A DNA stretch of 64,000 nucleotides from Candidatus Nomurabacteria bacterium (GCA_023267215.1 JAHFNS010000001.1:22043-86042), one strand, 5' to 3'; positions 6,131-62,799 are shown, counted from the stretch's first letter. The notes: generated by a model not told the origin, from the letters alone. Numbers and translations: made by a program.

Positions 6131-7069
6131 ATGAAAAACAAAATGAAAAAAGAAATTAAAATTTTTTGTGCAAAAGATTGGTCCGATTATGAAATGCTCG
6201 ATACTGGGGATGGGGAGAAGTTGGAACGTTTTGGTCCACATGTTTTTGTGCGTCCTTATGAAGATGCTGTTTGGAAAAAAACTTTGAGTGAAAAAGAATG
6301 GGGGAAAGCAGATGGAAAATTCTGGAGTTCTAAAGTTGGGGCGAAAGCTGGATGGAAATTTACCAAGGGGAACCCTTGGGGAAACTCTCTTAAGGGTTCC
6401 CCTTTAAAATGGGAGATGGAATACAAGGGTATAAAATTTTTAGCTTCGCCTACGCCTTTTCGACATTTGAGTTTTTTTCCTGAACAGGCAAGTCATTGGG
6501 ATTTTATCGAAAAAGAAATTTCCCGAGGGTTATCCTCGGGAAGAAGAATTAAATTTCTGAATTTATTTGGTTATACGGGTGTTGCGAGTTTATTTGCTTT
6601 GCGAGCTGGTGCGGAAGTGACACACATAGATGCTTCCAAACAAACATTGGAACAAGTAAAAGAAAATCAAAAGCTCAATGGTTTTGAAAAAATGCCTATG
6701 CGAATTATCTTGGATGATGTTATGAAATTCTTGGAACGTGAAATAAAAAGAGGAAATAAATATGACGCTGTGATAATGGATCCACCAAAATTTGGACGTG
6801 GTCCAAAAGGGGAAATTTGGAAAATAGAAAAAGACTTACCGAAACTTCTTGGAGAAGTACGAAAAGTTTTGAGTGACAAACCTCTTTTTGTAATATTAAA
6901 TTCTTATGCCATAGATTCATCTTCGCTTTCACTTGGTTATGCGCTAGAAGATGCCATGAAGGGGCTCAAAGGGGAAGTCACATCTGGCGAGCTTTGTTTA
7001 CTAGAAAAATCTAACGGCAGAAATATCTCTCTTTCAAATACAGCCATTTGGGAAAATTATGACAATTAA
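6131..7069 (+). CDS. Class I SAM-dependent RNA methyltransferase (RlmI/YccW-like)
   Basis: FGYTGVASLFALRAGA (motif I) and DAVIMDPPKF (DPPKF motif IV), as in RlmI-family methyltransferases. Confidence 0.6.
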   Translation: MKNKMKKEIKIFCAKDWSDYEMLDTGDGEKLERFGPHVFVRPYEDAVWKKTLSEKEWGKADGKFWSSKVGAKAGWKFTKGNPWGNSLKGSPLKWEMEYKGIKFLASPTPFRHLSFFPEQASHWDFIEKEISRGLSSGRRIKFLNLFGYTGVASLFALRAGAEVTHIDASKQTLEQVKENQKLNGFEKMPMRIILDDVMKFLEREIKRGNKYDAVIMDPPKFGRGPKGEIWKIEKDLPKLLGEVRKVLSDKPLFVILNSYAIDSSSLSLGYALEDAMKGLKGEVTSGELCLLEKSNGRNISLSNTAIWENYDN

Positions 7070-14178: not shown

Positions 14179-16071
14179 ATGGATTTACAATATATACGAA
14201 ATTTCAGCATCATAGCTCATATAGACCATGGTAAGAGCACTTTGGCAGATAGAATGCTTGAAATAACACATACCATAGAGGCTCGTAAAATGCGTGACCA
14301 ATTTTTGGATAATATGGAGCTTGAACGAGAAAGGGGTATAACTATTAAGATGCAACCCGTACGTATGGAATTTACCCCAAATTCCCCGAAGCCCAGCTTA
14401 GGAGAAGTTTCCTTAAGCTGGGCTTCGGGGGAAGGCGAAACTTTTATTTTAAACCTTATAGACACGCCAGGCCACATAGACTTCTCTTATGAAGTATCTC
14501 GTGCCTTAAAGGCCGTAGAAGGCTCTATATTGCTCGTAGATGCAACTCAGGGTGTCCAAGCACAAACATTGACTACTTTAGAAATGGCTCGAGAAAGCGG
14601 GCTTGTTCTCATCCCTGTTTTATCAAAAATAGATTCACCATTAGCTCGAGTAGATGAAATAAAAATGGAAGTGGCAGTTTTGCTTGATATAAATCCTGAT
14701 ACAATTTTAGAAGTATCTGGAAAAACAGGGGAAGGTGTAGAGAATTTATTAGAAGAAATAATAAAAAAAATACCGCCACCTTCTTTGGATGAAAAATTAA
14801 TTCCTGATACTTTGCAAAATGTACGAGGAGAAGAAAGTTGTCGGGCTTTAGTTTTTGACTTTAAATATGATAGTCATAGAGGAGTTATTGTCTATGTTCG
14901 TCTTTTCAACGGTTCAATAAAAAAAGGGGACAATCTTCTTTTTTCTGTTTCGGGAGAAAGATTTATCGCACTAGAAGTCGGAATATTCTCACCAGAAGAG
15001 AATCCAAAAAGTTCAATTGGAATTGGAGAAATAGGTTATATTATAACCGGAATTAAAAAGCCTGGTATTGCTTCTGTCGGAGACACCATCACTTTTAATA
15101 AAAAACCACTACCTGCTTTACCCGGATATATGAATCCAAAACCGGTTGTCTGGGCTTCGGTTTATCCAGAAGATGCAGATGATTTTCCAAATTTAAAACT
15201 TGCTTTAAGTCGTTTAAAACTTTCTGATTCTGCTTTTTCTTACGAAGAAGAATCTTCTGGTACGCTTGGTAAAGGTTTTCGTTGTGGTTTTTTAGGAATG
15301 CTGCATCTTGAAATAATTACAGAACGCTTAAAAAGAGAATTTAATTTAAATTTGGTGGTGACGATGCCTTCTATTACCTATAAAGTAATTTTGAGAAATA
15401 ACAAAGAGTTGATGATATATTCTCCTCATTTTTTTCCAGATGATAGTCAAATCATAAAAGTTTATGAACCCTGGGTGTCAGTCAAAGTTATTACTCCACA
15501 AATGTATACCAGTGTATTAATGCCTTTTCTTTTTGACCATGAAGCAGAAGTACATATGACTGATAGCTTTGGAGACAACCGTTCAGTAATAAATCTAGAT
15601 ATGCCCTTGCGTGAATTAATGCGTAATTTTTTCGATGATTTAAAAAGTATTACTTCTGGTTATGCCTCCATTTCTTACGAAATTGGTAAATATAGAGATG
15701 CAGATGTTGTTCGATTAGATATCTTAGTGGCGGATGAATCTATGCCAGCTTTCTGTAGAGTTGTCTCAAGACGTAGGGTAGAAGAAGAAGCCCACAACCA
15801 AGTTGAAAAATTAAAAAAAATTATTCCACGACAACAATTTCCTTTTAAAATACAAGGTAAAGCATTAGGAAGAATTATTGCCTCCGAATCTGTCTCTGCT
15901 TTTCGAAAAGATGTTTTGATGCATGGTAGTAAAGTTGTTGGTGGAGGAGATGTTAGTCGAAAAAAGAAACTTCTAGAAAAGCAAAAAAGAGGAAAAGCTA
16001 GAATGAAAGAAAACGCAAAAGTAAACATTACTCAAGATGTTTTTCTAAAAATGATGCGTAGAGGGGAATAG
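14179..16071 (+). CDS. lepA: Elongation factor 4 (LepA)
   Basis: NFSIIAHIDHGKSTLADR, DTPGHIDF, and the LepA-specific C-terminal domain. Contains an in-frame 47-bp palindrome insertion at 14384..14430. Confidence 0.9.
   Translation: MDLQYIRNFSIIAHIDHGKSTLADRMLEITHTIEARKMRDQFLDNMELERERGITIKMQPVRMEFTPNSPKPSLGEVSLSWASGEGETFILNLIDTPGHIDFSYEVSRALKAVEGSILLVDATQGVQAQTLTTLEMARESGLVLIPVLSKIDSPLARVDEIKMEVAVLLDINPDTILEVSGKTGEGVENLLEEIIKKIPPPSLDEKLIPDTLQNVRGEESCRALVFDFKYDSHRGVIVYVRLFNGSIKKGDNLLFSVSGERFIALEVGIFSPEENPKSSIGIGEIGYIITGIKKPGIASVGDTITFNKKPLPALPGYMNPKPVVWASVYPEDADDFPNLKLALSRLKLSDSAFSYEEESSGTLGKGFRCGFLGMLHLEIITERLKREFNLNLVVTMPSITYKVILRNNKELMIYSPHFFPDDSQIIKVYEPWVSVKVITPQMYTSVLMPFLFDHEAEVHMTDSFGDNRSVINLDMPLRELMRNFFDDLKSITSGYASISYEIGKYRDADVVRLDILVADESMPAFCRVVSRRRVEEEAHNQVEKLKKIIPRQQFPFKIQGKALGRIIASESVSAFRKDVLMHGSKVVGGGDVSRKKKLLEKQKRGKARMKENAKVNITQDVFLKMMRRGE
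14384..14430 (+). repeat. 47-bp perfect-arm palindrome inside lepA (in-frame)
   Basis: CCCCGAAGCCCAGCTTA - 13-nt centre (GGAGAAGTTTCCT) - TAAGCTGGGCTTCGGGG. Confidence 0.9.
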
Positions 16072-17539: not shown

Positions 17540-18856
17540 ATGGAATTACACAGTATCAAAAATTTTAATGAGCTTGCAACGACAGAAAATCGTAAAATAG
17601 CACTAGAGATAATTGAAGCTGGTATGGATGCCATAAATACAGAAAAGGTGATAAAATCATCAGTCATTTTGAAGAGTGATGTTTTGTCGATAGGAGATAA
17701 AGATTTTGATTTATCAAAATATAAAAATATAAAAGTCATAGGTTTCGGCAAATCTTCACCTGATGCAGCTCTAGTGCTAGAAGATGTACTGGGGTCCAAG
17801 ATTACGAAAGGAGCTGTCGTCGGCCTTAAAAAAGTTCCGTGTAGATATATAGAGACATTCATTGGTACACATCCCAGACCTTCGAGAGAGAACATAGAAG
17901 CCGGGAATAAAATATTTGAATTATTGGATGGATCCACTGCTCAGGATTTGATCATTGTTTTAGTTTCTGGTGGAGGTTCAGCATTGCTTTGCTATGGGGA
18001 GGGTGAATGCACAGAAGGTGCGAAGCTATATGATAACTTTTTATCTCTCGGTAAGACTATATCTGAAATGAATACAGTTAGAAAACATCTGTCTCTTTTC
18101 AAAGGAGGAGGATTGGCAAAAATAGCGTATCCAGCCACGGTCATAGGACTTATTTTTTCTGATGTTCCAGGGGGCGATTTTGCTAGTGTGGCTTCTGGTC
18201 CGACTTACAAAGATGAAACGAGTATAAAAGATGCTCAAAAGATAATAATAGAAAATAATTTAGGAAATTTTGATCTGATTGAAACACCTAAAGAAGATAA
18301 ATATTTTGAAAATGTTTTTAACTTTGTAGTTGTGTCGAATGAAATCGCAATAAACAAAATGGTAGAGAAAGCAAAGGAATTTAATTTTGAAACAAATATC
18401 GTTTCGACTGAATTATACGATGAGACGAACATAGCGCTTGATAAAATATTCCAAACGATGCCCCAAAGACGGTCTTCGGGGAATTCCCCGAAGACCGTCT
18501 TTGGGGTGGGTTCTGTTGTTCTAGCTGCTGGAGAGCCAAGTATTACTGTGACAAAAAGCGGGGGAAAGGGAGGGAGAAATTTACACATGGGACTTTTGTC
18601 TATAGAGAAAAATTTAATAGACGATGATTCAGTATTTATATCTTTTGCATCTGATGGTATGGACAATAGTGATGCAGCTGGGACAGTAGTCGATAAAAAT
18701 ACAGTGGAGAAAATAAATAAATTAGGTATAAATGTAAAAGATGCACTAGAAAATTTTGATTCGTATCCAGTATTTGAAAAGTCAGGCGATATCATAATGA
18801 CAGGTCCCACCGGAGCAAACGTGTCAGACTTGATGTTGCTTTTAAAGAGAAAATAA
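17540..18856 (+). CDS. Glycerate 2-kinase (MOFRL family)
   Basis: LVSGGGSALL and the overall MOFRL layout. Contains an in-frame 46-bp perfect palindrome at 18461..18506. Confidence 0.7.
   Translation: MELHSIKNFNELATTENRKIALEIIEAGMDAINTEKVIKSSVILKSDVLSIGDKDFDLSKYKNIKVIGFGKSSPDAALVLEDVLGSKITKGAVVGLKKVPCRYIETFIGTHPRPSRENIEAGNKIFELLDGSTAQDLIIVLVSGGGSALLCYGEGECTEGAKLYDNFLSLGKTISEMNTVRKHLSLFKGGGLAKIAYPATVIGLIFSDVPGGDFASVASGPTYKDETSIKDAQKIIIENNLGNFDLIETPKEDKYFENVFNFVVVSNEIAINKMVEKAKEFNFETNIVSTELYDETNIALDKIFQTMPQRRSSGNSPKTVFGVGSVVLAAGEPSITVTKSGGKGGRNLHMGLLSIEKNLIDDDSVFISFASDGMDNSDAAGTVVDKNTVEKINKLGINVKDALENFDSYPVFEKSGDIIMTGPTGANVSDLMLLLKRK
18461..18506 (+). repeat. 46-bp perfect palindrome inside the glycerate kinase gene (in-frame)
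   Basis: CCCCAAAGACGGTCTTCGGGG-AATT-CCCCGAAGACCGTCTTTGGGG. Confidence 0.9.
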
Positions 18857-27979: not shown

Positions 27980-28051
27980 GCCTAGGTAGCTCAGTAGTAG
28001 AGCGTTCCCCTGAAGAGGGACAGGTCGGGTGTGCGATCCACCCCCTAGGCA
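27980..28051 (+). tRNA. tRNA-Phe (anticodon GAA) with an unusual T-loop (G at position 55)
   Basis: Perfect acceptor (GCCTAGG/CCTAGGC), D stem (GCTC/GAGC) and T stem (GGGTG/CACCC). Anticodon loop CTGAAGA. T-loop TGCGATC instead of TTCGAWT. Confidence 0.6.
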
Positions 28052-28053
28052 CA
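28016..28053 (+). repeat. Direct repeat copy 1 (38 bp; 3' half of tRNA-Phe from the anticodon stem to the discriminator)
   Basis: AGGGACAGGTCGGGTGTGCGATCCACCCCCTAGGCACA is identical to 28412..28449. Confidence 0.9.
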
Positions 28054-28107
28054 TGAAAAATAAAATAAACTTAACTCAACTAAAGAAATATAATTAGATA
28101 TAATTAT

Positions 28108-28410
28108 ATGTCTTGTTATGTTTATATGATAAAAAGCATAAAAGATAACAGTTATTATGTTGGTATTTCAGAAGATCCTATTAGGAGATTGAAGGAACAT
28201 AATAGCGGTAAATTAAAAAGAACAGCTAAAAATAAACCACATAAGATTGTATTTATAAAAGAACACTTAGATTATAAAAAGGCGAGAATACACGAGATTT
28301 GGCTTAAGAAGAAAAATAAAGAATATAAGGACAAAGTGGCTGATTTCGATGCGAAAAATAAAAATTATGTAGAGCATTCCCCCTTGCCCCGCCCATTACG
28401 GGCGGGGTGA
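28108..28410 (+). CDS. GIY-YIG nuclease family protein (YhbQ/UPF0213-like)
   Basis: CYVYMIKSIKDNSYYVGISEDPIRRLKEHNSG parallels E. coli YhbQ [31 protein letters not shown]: GIY...YIG spacing and conserved Arg/Glu/Asn. Confidence 0.8.
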   Translation: MSCYVYMIKSIKDNSYYVGISEDPIRRLKEHNSGKLKRTAKNKPHKIVFIKEHLDYKKARIHEIWLKKKNKEYKDKVADFDAKNKNYVEHSPLPRPLRAG

Positions 28411-28411
28411 A

Positions 28412-28449
28412 AGGGACAGGTCGGGTGTGCGATCCACCCCCTAGGCACA
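28412..28449 (+). repeat. Direct repeat copy 2 (displaced duplicate of the tRNA-Phe 3' half)
   Basis: Exact 38/38 match to 28016..28053. Preceded by the hairpin CCCGCCCATTACGGGCGGG. Confidence 0.9.
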
Positions 28450-28452
28450 AAA

Positions 28453-32497: not shown

Positions 32498-33723
32498 TTT
32501 TTTCCTAGTTTTAAGTTTCCATCGGCCCGTATTTCTTTTTTTGGAATGCGGGCTTTATTCTTTATATAATTTAAATATCCAGCTACGCCTATCATTATAG
32601 AATTATCTCCAGTTAATGCTTTTTCGGGGAAAAGTAATGTTGTCTTTTTATCTATCGTTTTTTCCATTTGTCTTCTTAAGTGTTCGTTGCAAGAGACTCC
32701 ACCGGCTACTATTATTGTTTTTACTTTAAATTTTTCTGCTGCCTTTGTTGTTTTGTGAATGAGAACATCAACTACAGCATTTTCAAATTCTAGTGCTATT
32801 TTTTGTTTTATTTCTTCTTTTTCTAAGATATTTGGATTTTCTTTTTTTAAATCACGTATCAAATACAAAACGGCAGTTTTTAATCCAGAAAAAGAAAAAT
32901 CAAAATTTTTACTATACATCATAGGGCGGGGAAGAACTGCAGAAAAATCAATCTTTTTGGGGTCGCTGTCTCCGCTTACTAGCGGAGCGCTGCCTCTCGG
33001 CCCGTCGGCCTGCGAGACACCCCATAAAGATTGTTTTTCTGCAGTTCTGACTTCCTCTGCTAACCTTGAAATTTCTGGTCCACCAGGATATTTTAGACCC
33101 ATCATTCTCGCTACCTTATCATAGGCTTCTCCAGCGGCATCATCTAATGTTTGTCCCAATATTTTATATTGTATCCAATTTTTTGAGAGAATGAGTTCAG
33201 TGTGTCCACCTGAGACGAGTAAAGATAATGTAGGGAATTTCATTTTTGGAATTTTAAAACTTCCTTTGTTTTTAGCAAAAACAGAAAATATATGTCCCTC
33301 CATATGATTCACTGGTACGAGAGAGATGTTCCATTTTTTTGCGAGCTCTTTCGCGAAAACTATTCCACTCCAAAGTGAAGGCTCTAGTCCAGGGCCATAT
33401 GTGACGGTTATTAAATCAATTCCAGCTGGATTAGTATCAAAGGCAAGGCCTTTTTGAATTCTTAAGGCCTTGCCTTTTAAAAAAGCCTGGCTTTTGGAGA
33501 ATTTCTTTAAAACTTCTTCTAAAAGTATAGGTAAATTTTTTATGTGTTCTCGTTTTGCAAGGGCAGGGAAGACTCCGCCATATTCTGCGTGTATTTTTAT
33601 TTGTGAATTAGCAGCATTGGCCAATATCTTAAAAGAGGCATTATTATTTTTAATGTCTCCTTTGGCTTCCAATATACTTATTGCTGTGTCGTCGCAACTT
33701 GTTTCAATACTTAAAATTTTCAT
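32494..33723 (-). CDS. tsaD: tRNA N6-adenosine threonylcarbamoyltransferase TsaD, carrying an in-frame repeat-element insertion
   Basis: MKILSIETSCDDTAISI, HMEGH, YPGGP...LPRPM, FDFSFSGLKT. 409 aa versus ~340 typical. The extra segment corresponds to the element at 32933..33048. Confidence 0.85.
   Translation of the reverse strand: MKILSIETSCDDTAISILEAKGDIKNNNASFKILANAANSQIKIHAEYGGVFPALAKREHIKNLPILLEEVLKKFSKSQAFLKGKALRIQKGLAFDTNPAGIDLITVTYGPGLEPSLWSGIVFAKELAKKWNISLVPVNHMEGHIFSVFAKNKGSFKIPKMKFPTLSLLVSGGHTELILSKNWIQYKILGQTLDDAAGEAYDKVARMMGLKYPGGPEISRLAEEVRTAEKQSLWGVSQADGPRGSAPLVSGDSDPKKIDFSAVLPRPMMYSKNFDFSFSGLKTAVLYLIRDLKKENPNILEKEEIKQKIALEFENAVVDVLIHKTTKAAEKFKVKTIIVAGGVSCNEHLRRQMEKTIDKKTTLLFPEKALTGDNSIMIGVAGYLNYIKNKARIPKKEIRADGNLKLGKN
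32933..33048. repeat. ~116-bp inverted-repeat element (26-30-bp AT-rich arms, GC-rich core) inserted in-frame in tsaD
   Basis: AGAACTGCAGAAAAATCAATCTTTTTGGGG - GC-rich core (CTCCGCTTACTAGCGGAG, GGCCCGTCGGCC) - CCCCATAAAGATTGTTTTTCTGCAGTTCT. Arms match with 2 mismatches. Confidence 0.8.
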
Positions 33724-61353: not shown

Positions 61354-62799
61354 TTGTATAATAAACACATGGCTAAAAAATACTATCCTACAATCGGGCT
61401 CGAAATACATGCAGAATTGAAAACGCAGACGAAAATGTTTTGTGGTTGCAAGAATAATCCTGATGAAGAGAAACCAAATGTAAACATTTGTCCTGTCTGT
61501 ATGGCACATCCTGGGACATTGCCTGTGATAAATAAAAAAGCTATTGAAAATGTTATTAAAGTTGGCTTGGCTATCGGTGGCACGATTGCAGACTTTACAG
61601 AATTTGATCGTAAAAATTATTTTTACCCAGATATTCCGAAAGGTTATCAGATTTCTCAATACAAATATCCGATAGTTTCTGGCGGGCACCTCGCAGGCTT
61701 CGACATCACTCGAGTGCATCTAGAAGAAGATACAGCAAATAACAAACACGATAGAGGGGATTTCTCATTAATTGATTTCAATCGAGCTGGCGTACCTTTG
61801 ATGGAGCTCGTGACAGAGCCAAATACTTTCGATGAGGCAGATGTCGCTGCGAAGACCACTTCGAATTTTGCAAAAGAACTTCAGCTTATCCTTTGGTATC
61901 TCGGAGTATCAGAAGCAAACATGGAAAAAGGTGAAATGCGTGTGGAAGCAAATATTTCTGTTTCAGAGGATAAAAATAAATTAGGTACGAAAGTTGAGGT
62001 GAAAAATTTGAACTCTTTCAAGAGTGTTGAAAAAGCAATTAAGTTTGAATTGGATAGAATGATAGAGCTTCACGAGAGTGGAAAGGGAGAAGAAATAGTG
62101 CAGGAGACTCGGGGCTGGGATGAAAGCAAACAGAAAACATTCTCTCAGAGAAAGAAGGAGTCTAGTCATGATTATAGATATTTTCCAGAGCCAGATTTAC
62201 CAAAAATGTTTTTGCACGAAGCATTTCCATTAGAAAAAATTAAAAAAGAACTAGGGGAGTTGCCTGTCGAAAAACGTACAAGATATAAGAAAGATTTTGG
62301 AATAAAAGATGAGGATATAGAAAGCTATATTAATGATAAAGAATTAGGTGTTTGGTTTGAAGAAGTTGCAAAAATGTTAGATAGTGGAGATAAAACAAAA
62401 ATAGCATCAAATTACATAACTTCTGACTATATGGGTCTCAAGAAAAACAACTTGGAGGCCTTGCCTCCAAGTGCTAGAAATTTTGCAGAACTTATAAATT
62501 TAGTGGCAGATAATAAAATTTCATCTCGCGTAGCGAAGGATATTTTAGCGATGATTATTTTGAAAGACGAGTCACCACTTCAAATTGCGACAGAAAAAAA
62601 TTTATTACAAAAAAATGATGAAGGATCAATAAAGATAATTGTAGAAAAAATAATCAATGAAAATCCTGACGTAGTCTCTATATATAAAGGAGGTAAAGAA
62701 AATGCTATAATGTCTCTAGTTGGTAAAGTTATAAAAGAAAGTAATGGCAGCGCAAATCCTAAAATGGTTATTGAAATGCTAAAAAATTTATTAATTTAA
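61354..62799 (+). CDS. gatB: Asp/Glu-tRNA(Asn/Gln) amidotransferase subunit B
   Basis: YYPTIGLEIHAELKTQTKMFCGCKN...CPVCMAHPGTLP. The start is probably at MAKKYY (61369). Confidence 0.9.
   Translation: MYNKHMAKKYYPTIGLEIHAELKTQTKMFCGCKNNPDEEKPNVNICPVCMAHPGTLPVINKKAIENVIKVGLAIGGTIADFTEFDRKNYFYPDIPKGYQISQYKYPIVSGGHLAGFDITRVHLEEDTANNKHDRGDFSLIDFNRAGVPLMELVTEPNTFDEADVAAKTTSNFAKELQLILWYLGVSEANMEKGEMRVEANISVSEDKNKLGTKVEVKNLNSFKSVEKAIKFELDRMIELHESGKGEEIVQETRGWDESKQKTFSQRKKESSHDYRYFPEPDLPKMFLHEAFPLEKIKKELGELPVEKRTRYKKDFGIKDEDIESYINDKELGVWFEEVAKMLDSGDKTKIASNYITSDYMGLKKNNLEALPPSARNFAELINLVADNKISSRVAKDILAMIILKDESPLQIATEKNLLQKNDEGSIKIIVEKIINENPDVVSIYKGGKENAIMSLVGKVIKESNGSANPKMVIEMLKNLLI

Follow-up and report, generated by a model that had tools for sequence, protein, structure and literature searches.

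We describe here a flawless 46-bp palindrome that is translated within a glycerate 2-kinase gene of Candidatus Nomurabacteria, an ultra-small bacterium of the Patescibacteria. It is probably a non-autonomous element of the kind formed by repetitive extragenic palindromic sequences (REPs) and by their hairpin-forming doublets (REPINs), tied to a transposase that resembles the REP-associated tyrosine transposases (RAYTs) and retained in a tolerant loop of its host protein. The palindrome lies in a stretch of 64,000 nucleotides (GCA_023267215.1 JAHFNS010000001.1:22043-86042), which we call the window, and all positions are counted from its first letter unless another locus is named. A previous reading of this DNA (hereafter the sequence-only reading) had singled out the palindrome and proposed that it was an in-frame insertion; what is added here is that the 46-mer consists of two copies of a 21-nt hairpin unit, that this unit is tied to a RAYT-like transposase, and that the site that it occupies in the kinase is a hotspot.

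The palindrome occupies positions 18461-18506 and reads CCCCAAAGACGGTCTTCGGGG-AATT-CCCCGAAGACCGTCTTTGGGG, exactly what and where the sequence-only reading had said. Because AATT is self-complementary, the 46-mer is a perfect palindrome of 23+23 nt, whose arms are 100% complementary and leave no spacer; the number of perfect palindromes with 23-bp arms expected by chance is 1.3e-8 per 64 kb of the window's composition. As single-stranded DNA the 46 nt fold with -28.5 kcal/mol (z = -10.0 relative to 200 dinucleotide shuffles, none of which is as stable). The GC-richness that had been remarked upon in an AT-rich gene is also real, since 28 of the 46 bases are G or C (61%), compared to 37% in the gene and 32.5% in the window.

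Sequence, fold and unit orientation all lead us to describe this palindrome as a REPIN-like, head-to-head (inverted) doublet of a 21-nt hairpin unit. Unit 1, at 18461-18481, is CCCCAAAGACGGTCTTCGGGG and differs by one mismatch (G5>A) from the family consensus CCCCGAAGAC-S-GTCTTCGGGG, while unit 2, at 18486-18506, is CCCCGAAGACCGTCTTTGGGG, the exact reverse complement of unit 1, with the mirrored change C17>T. Between them, the 4-nt junction AATT (18482-18485) is made of the A-A and T-T flanks that are typical of single units, as judged from the flank consensus YT-unit-AR of 30 non-redundant copies, and when both units are oriented by their central base, their T-flanked ends face the central AA|TT. 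Unit 1 alone folds weakly (-3.5 kcal/mol), because G5>A breaks its own stem. The two mirrored changes each spoil the stem of their own unit, yet the 46-nt hairpin stays perfect, which points to the doublet as what is copied, maintained or selected. It is precisely by the doublet, as the copied or selected entity, that REPINs are defined (PMC3116915).

The exact complementarity of the two units, including the variant that they share, is also what an inverted duplication would give, and each arm is nearly palindromic in itself. One could then imagine that a quasi-palindrome of the linker was perfected and enlarged in place by template switching or snap-back replication, without any import. We find such a local de novo origin very unlikely, considering that a 21-mer only one base different is found at unrelated loci in other genomes, that the GC content departs so much from that of the gene, and that the insertion-free orthologues show no precursor at the site. 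Inverted duplication may be the route that led from a single imported unit to the doublet.

The host gene is an open reading frame (ORF) at 17540-18856, on the plus strand, encoding a glycerate 2-kinase of 438 aa, as identified from Pfam (DUF4147, E 4.5e-56, and MOFRL, E 7e-27) and from homologues annotated as glycerate 2-kinases of Candidatus Paceibacterota or Nomurabacteria. The palindrome is translated in frame with it, as the sequence-only reading had recognised, into P308-QRRSSGNSPKTVF-G322 (residues 308-322, PQRRSSGNSPKTVFG), which falls in a loop between a helix (296-305) and a strand (325-331); the peptides predicted from the hairpin region include SSGNSPK and TVFGVGSVVLAAGEPSITVTK. 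The proposal that this segment is an insertion is borne out by an alignment of the kinase with 119 non-self homologues, 62-70% identical, most of which lack it. The residues between the conserved KIF and VVLAAGEP are exactly 7 in 73 of the 119 and at most 9 in 77, compared to 21 in the window kinase. The segment is also absent from the 426-aa kinase of the closest syntenic relative (L002-L004), which has the gene order lepA-divIC-(dehydrogenase)-kinase-enolase-PPDK in common with the window. The palindrome is an insertion of about 14 residues. An AlphaFold2 model of the kinase, computed from 58 sequences, has a mean predicted local distance difference test (pLDDT) score of 87.5, and only residues 309-321 fall below 50; in the PDB homologue 1x3l, there is a gap opposite the palindrome-encoded segment. 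According to the model, the peptide is predicted to lie in a disordered linker loop between the two kinase domains.

Fold-back chimeras can yield perfect palindromes, so that a chimeric join introduced by the assembly also had to be envisaged. Two more ENA contigs of the same population, which were assembled independently, encode the same 438-aa protein; one of them, L001, is 99.99% identical to the window over 19.9 kb with the palindrome included, and neither the reading frame nor the conserved domain downstream is disrupted. As the identical gene is present on two further assemblies, an artefact is excluded for all practical purposes. No empty-site variant was found in these two same-population contigs.

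The 21-nt unit is not restricted to the window. An arm-pattern scan of 596 Gb of genomes, one for each species, in which either arm was sought, gave 12 sites distributed over 10 loci; by our own estimate, about 2 matches would arise by chance over the whole genome collection. Eleven of the sites are in metagenome-assembled genomes (MAGs) of Patescibacteria (Saccharibacteria and Nomurabacteria), and all are the perfect unit CCCCGAAGAC-[C/G]-GTCTTCGGGG. A scan of metagenomes added 15 unit loci, 14 of them low in GC, and no copy of the unit was found in viral contigs. An absence of related copies, together with a peptide conserved among orthologues, had been named by the sequence-only reading as what would speak against it; related copies do exist in other genomes. 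When 30 non-redundant copies are oriented by their central base, their flanks show T at -1 (27/30), Y at -2, A at +1 (20/30) and R at +2, so that the family consensus with its flanks is YT-CCCCGAAGAC-S-GTCTTCGGGG-AR. All four basal pairs of the unit are G-C, the REP criterion of Quentin et al. being at least three G/C among these four. There is no consistent target-site duplication among the 30 copies, nor is there any at the palindrome of the window (flanks ...GATG | TGGG...).

The unit is exactly seven codons long and stop-free in all six frames. The sense readings that were observed cover all three frames (PRRPSSG; PEDGLRG or PEDRLRG; SPKTVFG), and the window uses two of them in succession. 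A second head-to-head doublet was found at L026 2813-2859, with a 5-nt spacer (z = -8.4), also within an open frame. Solo units are in frame in the genes of an M1 aminopeptidase (five contigs, same site), in purL (three contigs, same site), in recR and in holB; among the three contigs with a unit in recR, two have it at the same codon and one has it a few codons off and in another frame. Dispersed copies amount to 2-3 per MAG in these other MAGs. The window copy and most of the solo copies are inside long ORFs, and the extragenic location that is typical of REPs is not what we observe here. No empty-site orthologue was found among the loci compared for the solo units of recR, purL, the M1 aminopeptidase and holB. 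In an alignment of RecR with its PDB homologue, the net gain at the unit is of 3 residues only, which means that a unit does not always correspond to seven cleanly added residues.

Identical units stand at the same position in the M1 aminopeptidase (L013:2533, L015:3562, L023:362 and L027:8151), in purL (L018:1591 and L029:1150) and in recR (L014:1860, L025:1898 and L021:9704), in flanks that are only 53-78% identical at the protein level; this could reflect re-insertion at one site or the homogenisation of old copies. The M1 aminopeptidases of L013 and L015, which come from MAGs labelled as Nomurabacteria and Saccharibacteria respectively, carry the unit at the same site and are 68% identical over 180 aa. 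Such closeness is surprising for lineages so distant and could be due to gene transfer or to a binning error.

What connects the unit to a transposase is its repeated presence around a gene of about 230 aa encoding a single-tyrosine (Y1) enzyme of the HUH type. In at least 5 distinct contigs (L016=L030, L012/L033, L017=L032, L020 and L024), the unit has three positions relative to this gene: one copy directly precedes the start codon and has TATAAT behind it, one is internal and comes after the HUH motif, and one lies at the stop codon or immediately beyond it. The Y1 proteins of these loci are 67-77% identical to one another and 50-57% identical to the protein encoded at L007 5251-5907; the Pfam family Y1_Tnp matches the latter and does not match L016. 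At E <= 1e-10 the family contains 6,587 cluster representatives, and its named members are from Patescibacteria, Paceibacterota, Nomurabacteria or Zambryskibacteria, several of them being labelled RayT by the Joint Genome Institute (JGI). The HUH and YIxxNP motifs are invariant in the family alignment. The loop that follows the HUH motif is hypervariable across 120 homologues, and the peptides found there read like translated palindromes.

This hypervariability has a counterpart in the hairpins themselves. Besides the unit described here, four further lineages of RAYT-like genes are flanked by hairpins of their own. In L035/L036, CCCAAAAGACGGTCTTTTGGG occurs three times, upstream, inside and at the 3' end of the Y1 gene; in L037, the hairpin is CCCACATGTCWGACATGTGGG, with CCCACATGTC-W-GACATGTGGG upstream and inside and a variant at the 3' end; in L038, GCCAAAGTCGGACTTTGGC is found twice upstream and once inside; and in L007, GCGTTAGGTCTTGCCTAACGC is present on both sides of the Y1 gene in inverted orientation, with a third copy 5 kb away. 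The genes at L016:2740-3492, L017:3961-4717, L035:9968-10700, L037:9974-10313 and L038:146-525 all carry an in-frame copy of their own flanking hairpin directly behind the HUH motif, and a TATAAT box directly adjoins the upstream copy. The internal hairpin of the L034 RAYT gene is one mismatch away from unit 1 of the window. It is this co-variation of Y1 lineage and hairpin that constitutes our strongest argument for pairing the enzyme with the hairpin.

Several observations weigh against a REPIN of the RAYT-dependent type. Apart from one doublet and one hairpin in lepA that shares the foot of its stem, the 64 kb of the window contain nothing more of the family, and a tblastn search of the window with two Y1 proteins returned no RAYT homologue. 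Likewise, no dispersed copies of the hairpin families F2-F4 were found in the 10-20 kb surrounding three RAYT loci, so that copy numbers are low. The Y1 proteins are only putative RAYTs: their sole NCBIfam match is NF047646, REP-associated tyrosine transposase, with 35-48 bits for an equivalog cut-off of 80, and their sole PDB match, 4er8 (the TnpA-REP of Escherichia coli), is weak (E = 0.07), with the HUH motif (HFH) and the tyrosine motif YIHLNPIK standing opposite their counterparts in the alignment. The GTAG or CGTC tag is absent from the unit ends in the 30 copies, and CGTC is confined to the apex of the hairpin. That all members of the family look perfect is in part an effect of the search, as the scans required exact 21-mers. 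The nearest insertion-free kinase is only about 70% identical at the protein level, and the boundaries of the insertion, any target duplication and its age cannot be read for that reason. Finally, even in the literature, the idea that RAYTs mobilise REPs rests mostly on inference.

The missing RAYT gene and the missing tag would both suit another scenario, in which a palindrome of the RPE (Rickettsia palindromic element) type or of the MITE (miniature inverted-repeat transposable element) type is moved by other machinery or by recombination, and in which the hairpins next to the Y1 genes are the ends of an IS200/IS605-like element, alike by descent; in-frame insertions of RPEs are indeed known from reduced, AT-rich genomes, and no transposase is known for them (PMC3733652). 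We hold this scenario to be unlikely. Solo units are found in other genes of MAGs that carry the Y1 gene (CAYIUH has the Y1 locus L016 and the solo unit L018) and there are three solo copies in CAYITR; the hairpin and the Y1 protein co-vary in five lineages. The hallmarks of MITEs are lacking: beyond the hairpin there are no terminal inverted repeats, the target site is not duplicated, and the associated gene is of the Y1 type, not DDE.

The REPIN-type origin that we favour would proceed in the following way. Two 21-nt GC-footed hairpins would be joined head to head, and the pair would fold into a single hairpin of 21-23 bp. The Y1 enzyme would recognise this folded hairpin on single-stranded DNA and would cut and paste it, or copy it, in trans, a mechanism that has been demonstrated for IS200/IS605 and put forward for REPINs. 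Where a genome is almost wholly coding, most landings would occur within genes, and the survivors would be the copies that keep the frame, are free of stops and sit in a tolerant surface loop. The survivor in the kinase would be the one found in the disordered inter-domain linker, where it is translated as about 14 extra residues. That the transposase moved the palindrome, when it arrived, and that its peptide is neutral are points that we infer.

The linker of the kinase has received more than this one palindrome. At least 15 residues are present at exactly this place in 35 of the 119 homologues, and in the four insertion-bearing orthologues compared at the DNA level, the linker contains strong hairpins of unrelated sequences in every case (-28 to -59 kcal/mol). 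The hairpins of L005 and L006 have a common outer stem, CAAAACCARTGAA, that of L007 is CCCCTAAGTTAGACTTAGGGG, and the element of L008, with AGACGTTGGACATC ends, has further copies, one immediately downstream of the same gene in L008 and one between genes in L007. The site is a hotspot for insertions of unrelated hairpins. In a neighbour-joining tree of the kinases from which the linker was left out, the insertion classes are dispersed among the insertion-free sequences, and the commonest class appears in more than 10 separate places. Such a pattern suggests repeated gain and loss at the linker, which is hard to avoid as a reading, and it is only suggestive in a tree with short internal branches and no bootstrap support. 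The orthologues P0004, P0032, P0057 and P0074, classed as insertion-free, have 7-9 residues ending in QKPF.G or KS..D. These endings are similar to the 3' end of class-B insertions, the common type, and may be scars left by the deletion of a hairpin.

Such a hotspot would also fit a structural element that is selected for itself, a stable hairpin being kept at the domain boundary of the kinase and the mobile hairpins serving as its raw material. Its role would be played either by the mRNA, as a translational pause aiding domain-wise folding, an RNase III site or an attenuator, or by the DNA. The frequency of long linkers, the hairpins of all four orthologues, the fold of the window's kinase-linker segment as RNA (-56.5 kcal/mol) and the mirrored changes that preserve the long stem are all compatible with it, as is the fact that a consensus pattern scan scores the palindrome as terminator-like. 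We nevertheless judge this explanation rather unlikely. The insertion is absent from 77 of the 119 orthologues and its presence is patchy on the tree, and the occurrence of the same 21-mer in unrelated genes and beside a transposase gene accounts for the structure without any function, so that the data can be explained without selection. A product terminated here would, moreover, lack the conserved MOFRL domain. An intrinsic terminator as the main function was considered as a candidate and rejected, because the hairpin is mid-gene, 116 codons before the stop, and ahead of that domain. Its tail, GGGTTCTGTT, makes a poor T-run. At gathering score, the Rfam scan of the window detected 8 tRNAs only, and the palindrome matches no RNA family.

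A related hairpin is found in lepA, at 14380-14430, where AATT is followed by a 47-nt hairpin (14384-14430) with the same 8-bp foot, CCCCGAAG/CTTCGGGG, and a different, longer apical part. It lies within an in-frame insertion of 51 nt (17 aa) that is absent from four orthologues; the fifth, L007, has an unrelated 172-aa insertion in the same loop. The sequence-only reading had pointed out a motif common to the lepA and kinase palindromes and had seen in them what looked like one element family, and on both counts it is supported: the 12-mer AATTCCCCGAAG, which comprises the 8-bp foot and AATT, occurs three times at two loci (14380 and 18474/18482), where 0.01 occurrences are expected, and the lepA palindrome is an insertion as well. 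In L007 (5980-8340), lepA encodes 786 aa, and the 172 aa form a PDDEXK_3 nuclease-like domain placed in frame in a beta-turn (VRMxY...YILNLIDTPGH). This is the exact beta-turn that bears the palindrome insertion in the lepA of the window (14370-14440), and a Y1_Tnp gene is located directly upstream.

The resemblance that had been proposed with an element in tsaD is not supported. It rested on CCCCAAAG, which is not enriched in the window (3 matches for 1.5 expected, and 18 of 100 shuffles reach 3), and the GC island of tsaD (32953-33035) is a different, three-way structure, so we rejected the link. This island has a diverged counterpart in the tsaD of L036. Other in-frame GC-rich hairpins, whose sequences are unlike the kinase unit, are present in genes for a SAM-dependent methyltransferase, gatB and tsaD (6365-6404, 6520-6542, 62451-62471, 33441-33475 and 32953-33035), and the window as a whole contains 18 perfect GC-containing stems of at least 9 bp, compared to 6.4 +/- 2.5 in local shuffles. 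At the tRNA-Phe gene (27980-28052), the 3' end of about 38 nt is repeated at 28415-28452, immediately behind a GIY-YIG ORF of 100 aa (28108-28410) and a GC hairpin; the region 27980-28452 has the appearance of a small cassette that has integrated at the tRNA 3' end.

The closest known systems are those formed by REPs or REPINs and RAYTs (TnpA-REP), which have been described in Proteobacteria (PMC2817692, PMC3116915, PMC3333891, PMC3479197). In common with them, we find a GC-footed hairpin unit of 20-40 nt, inverted pairs that fold into one long hairpin, hairpins flanking a single HUH/Y1 gene, and a distinct hairpin for each transposase lineage. They differ from the present case in that here the copies are mostly intragenic and translated, the unpaired GTAG/CGTC tag is absent, the spacer is of 4-5 nt instead of tens of nt, the copy number appears low, the host phylum is Patescibacteria, and the transposase gene holds an in-frame copy right after its HUH motif. 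Intragenic REPs are known from Opitutus terrae (GTAG) and from Rickettsia conorii (RPE-4 and RPE-6, CGTC), where dimers encode about 20-30 aa in loops or linkers (PMC3733652). There too, units and dimers are wholly within the ORFs of known proteins, where flexible linkers or loops are believed to tolerate them, and their hosts include genes of DNA replication and repair (recR and holB in our case). These REPs are, however, tagged, the CGTC families have no associated transposase, and both sequences and lineages are unrelated to ours; the recurrent use of one orthologous site by several families is not described in that study (PMC3733652).

The IS200/IS605 elements and the palindrome-associated transposable elements (PATEs) likewise depend on a HUH transposase of the Y1 type; the enzyme acts on single-stranded DNA, where it recognises subterminal hairpins, and its insertions leave the target unduplicated. 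Their hairpins end a whole moving element, which is inserted after a defined tetra- or pentanucleotide, whereas here we have dispersed solo hairpins of 21 nt, with only a loose YT conserved 5' of the foot. Ogata et al. reportedly found in 2000 that, in a small and AT-rich genome, the palindromic repeat RPE-1 lies in frame in many protein genes, at positions on the protein surface that the fold can accommodate. Compared by description only, RPE-1 is alike in being an in-frame translated palindrome and unlike in its size (about 100-150 bp, for 46 bp here) and in having no known transposase. Yeast mitochondrial GC clusters are mobile elements that are palindromic and rich in GC, in a genome very rich in AT, and some lie in frame within a protein gene; unlike our element, they belong to a eukaryotic organelle, have no Y1 transposase and are unrelated in sequence.

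The kind of element described here is therefore already known, since the intragenic REPs (PMC3733652) and RPE-1 precede it. In the literature, we found nothing that links REP/RAYT elements or in-frame palindromes to the Patescibacteria, or candidate phyla radiation (CPR). What appears to be new is the phylum, the untagged 21-nt family with its sister families, the in-frame copy in the transposase gene, and the recurrent use of the same loops. A wider reading, to which we give only tentative credence, is that the Patescibacteria host a large undescribed RAYT-hairpin system, in which each transposase gene carries its cognate hairpin in frame after the HUH motif, this copy co-varying with those that flank the gene, and in which hairpins sit mainly in essential genes and return to the same few surface loops. 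Insertion would then be targeted, for instance to hairpins already in place or to particular contexts of single-stranded DNA, rather than only sifted afterwards by selection; the glycerate kinase linker, the beta-turn of lepA and the fixed sites of recR, purL and the M1 aminopeptidase would be such recurrent loops.

REP/REPIN-RAYT systems are among the commonest bacterial repeats, and both their mobilisation and the recognition of the hairpins are still largely inferred. If our reading is correct, the Patescibacteria would offer thousands of natural transposase-hairpin pairs, with the hairpin both within and beside the gene, and thus a co-variation set from which recognition rules could be drawn. 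It would explain part of the puzzling insertions found in CPR proteins, and would mean that where intergenic space is nearly nil, selfish hairpins persist by being translated in tolerant loops. It would also carry a warning for annotation, as inserts of 7-15 residues, GC-rich in their DNA, in CPR housekeeping proteins would be scars of mobile elements and not functional motifs. Were insertion targeted in addition, these hairpins would continually supply minimal genomes with variation in the length of their proteins.

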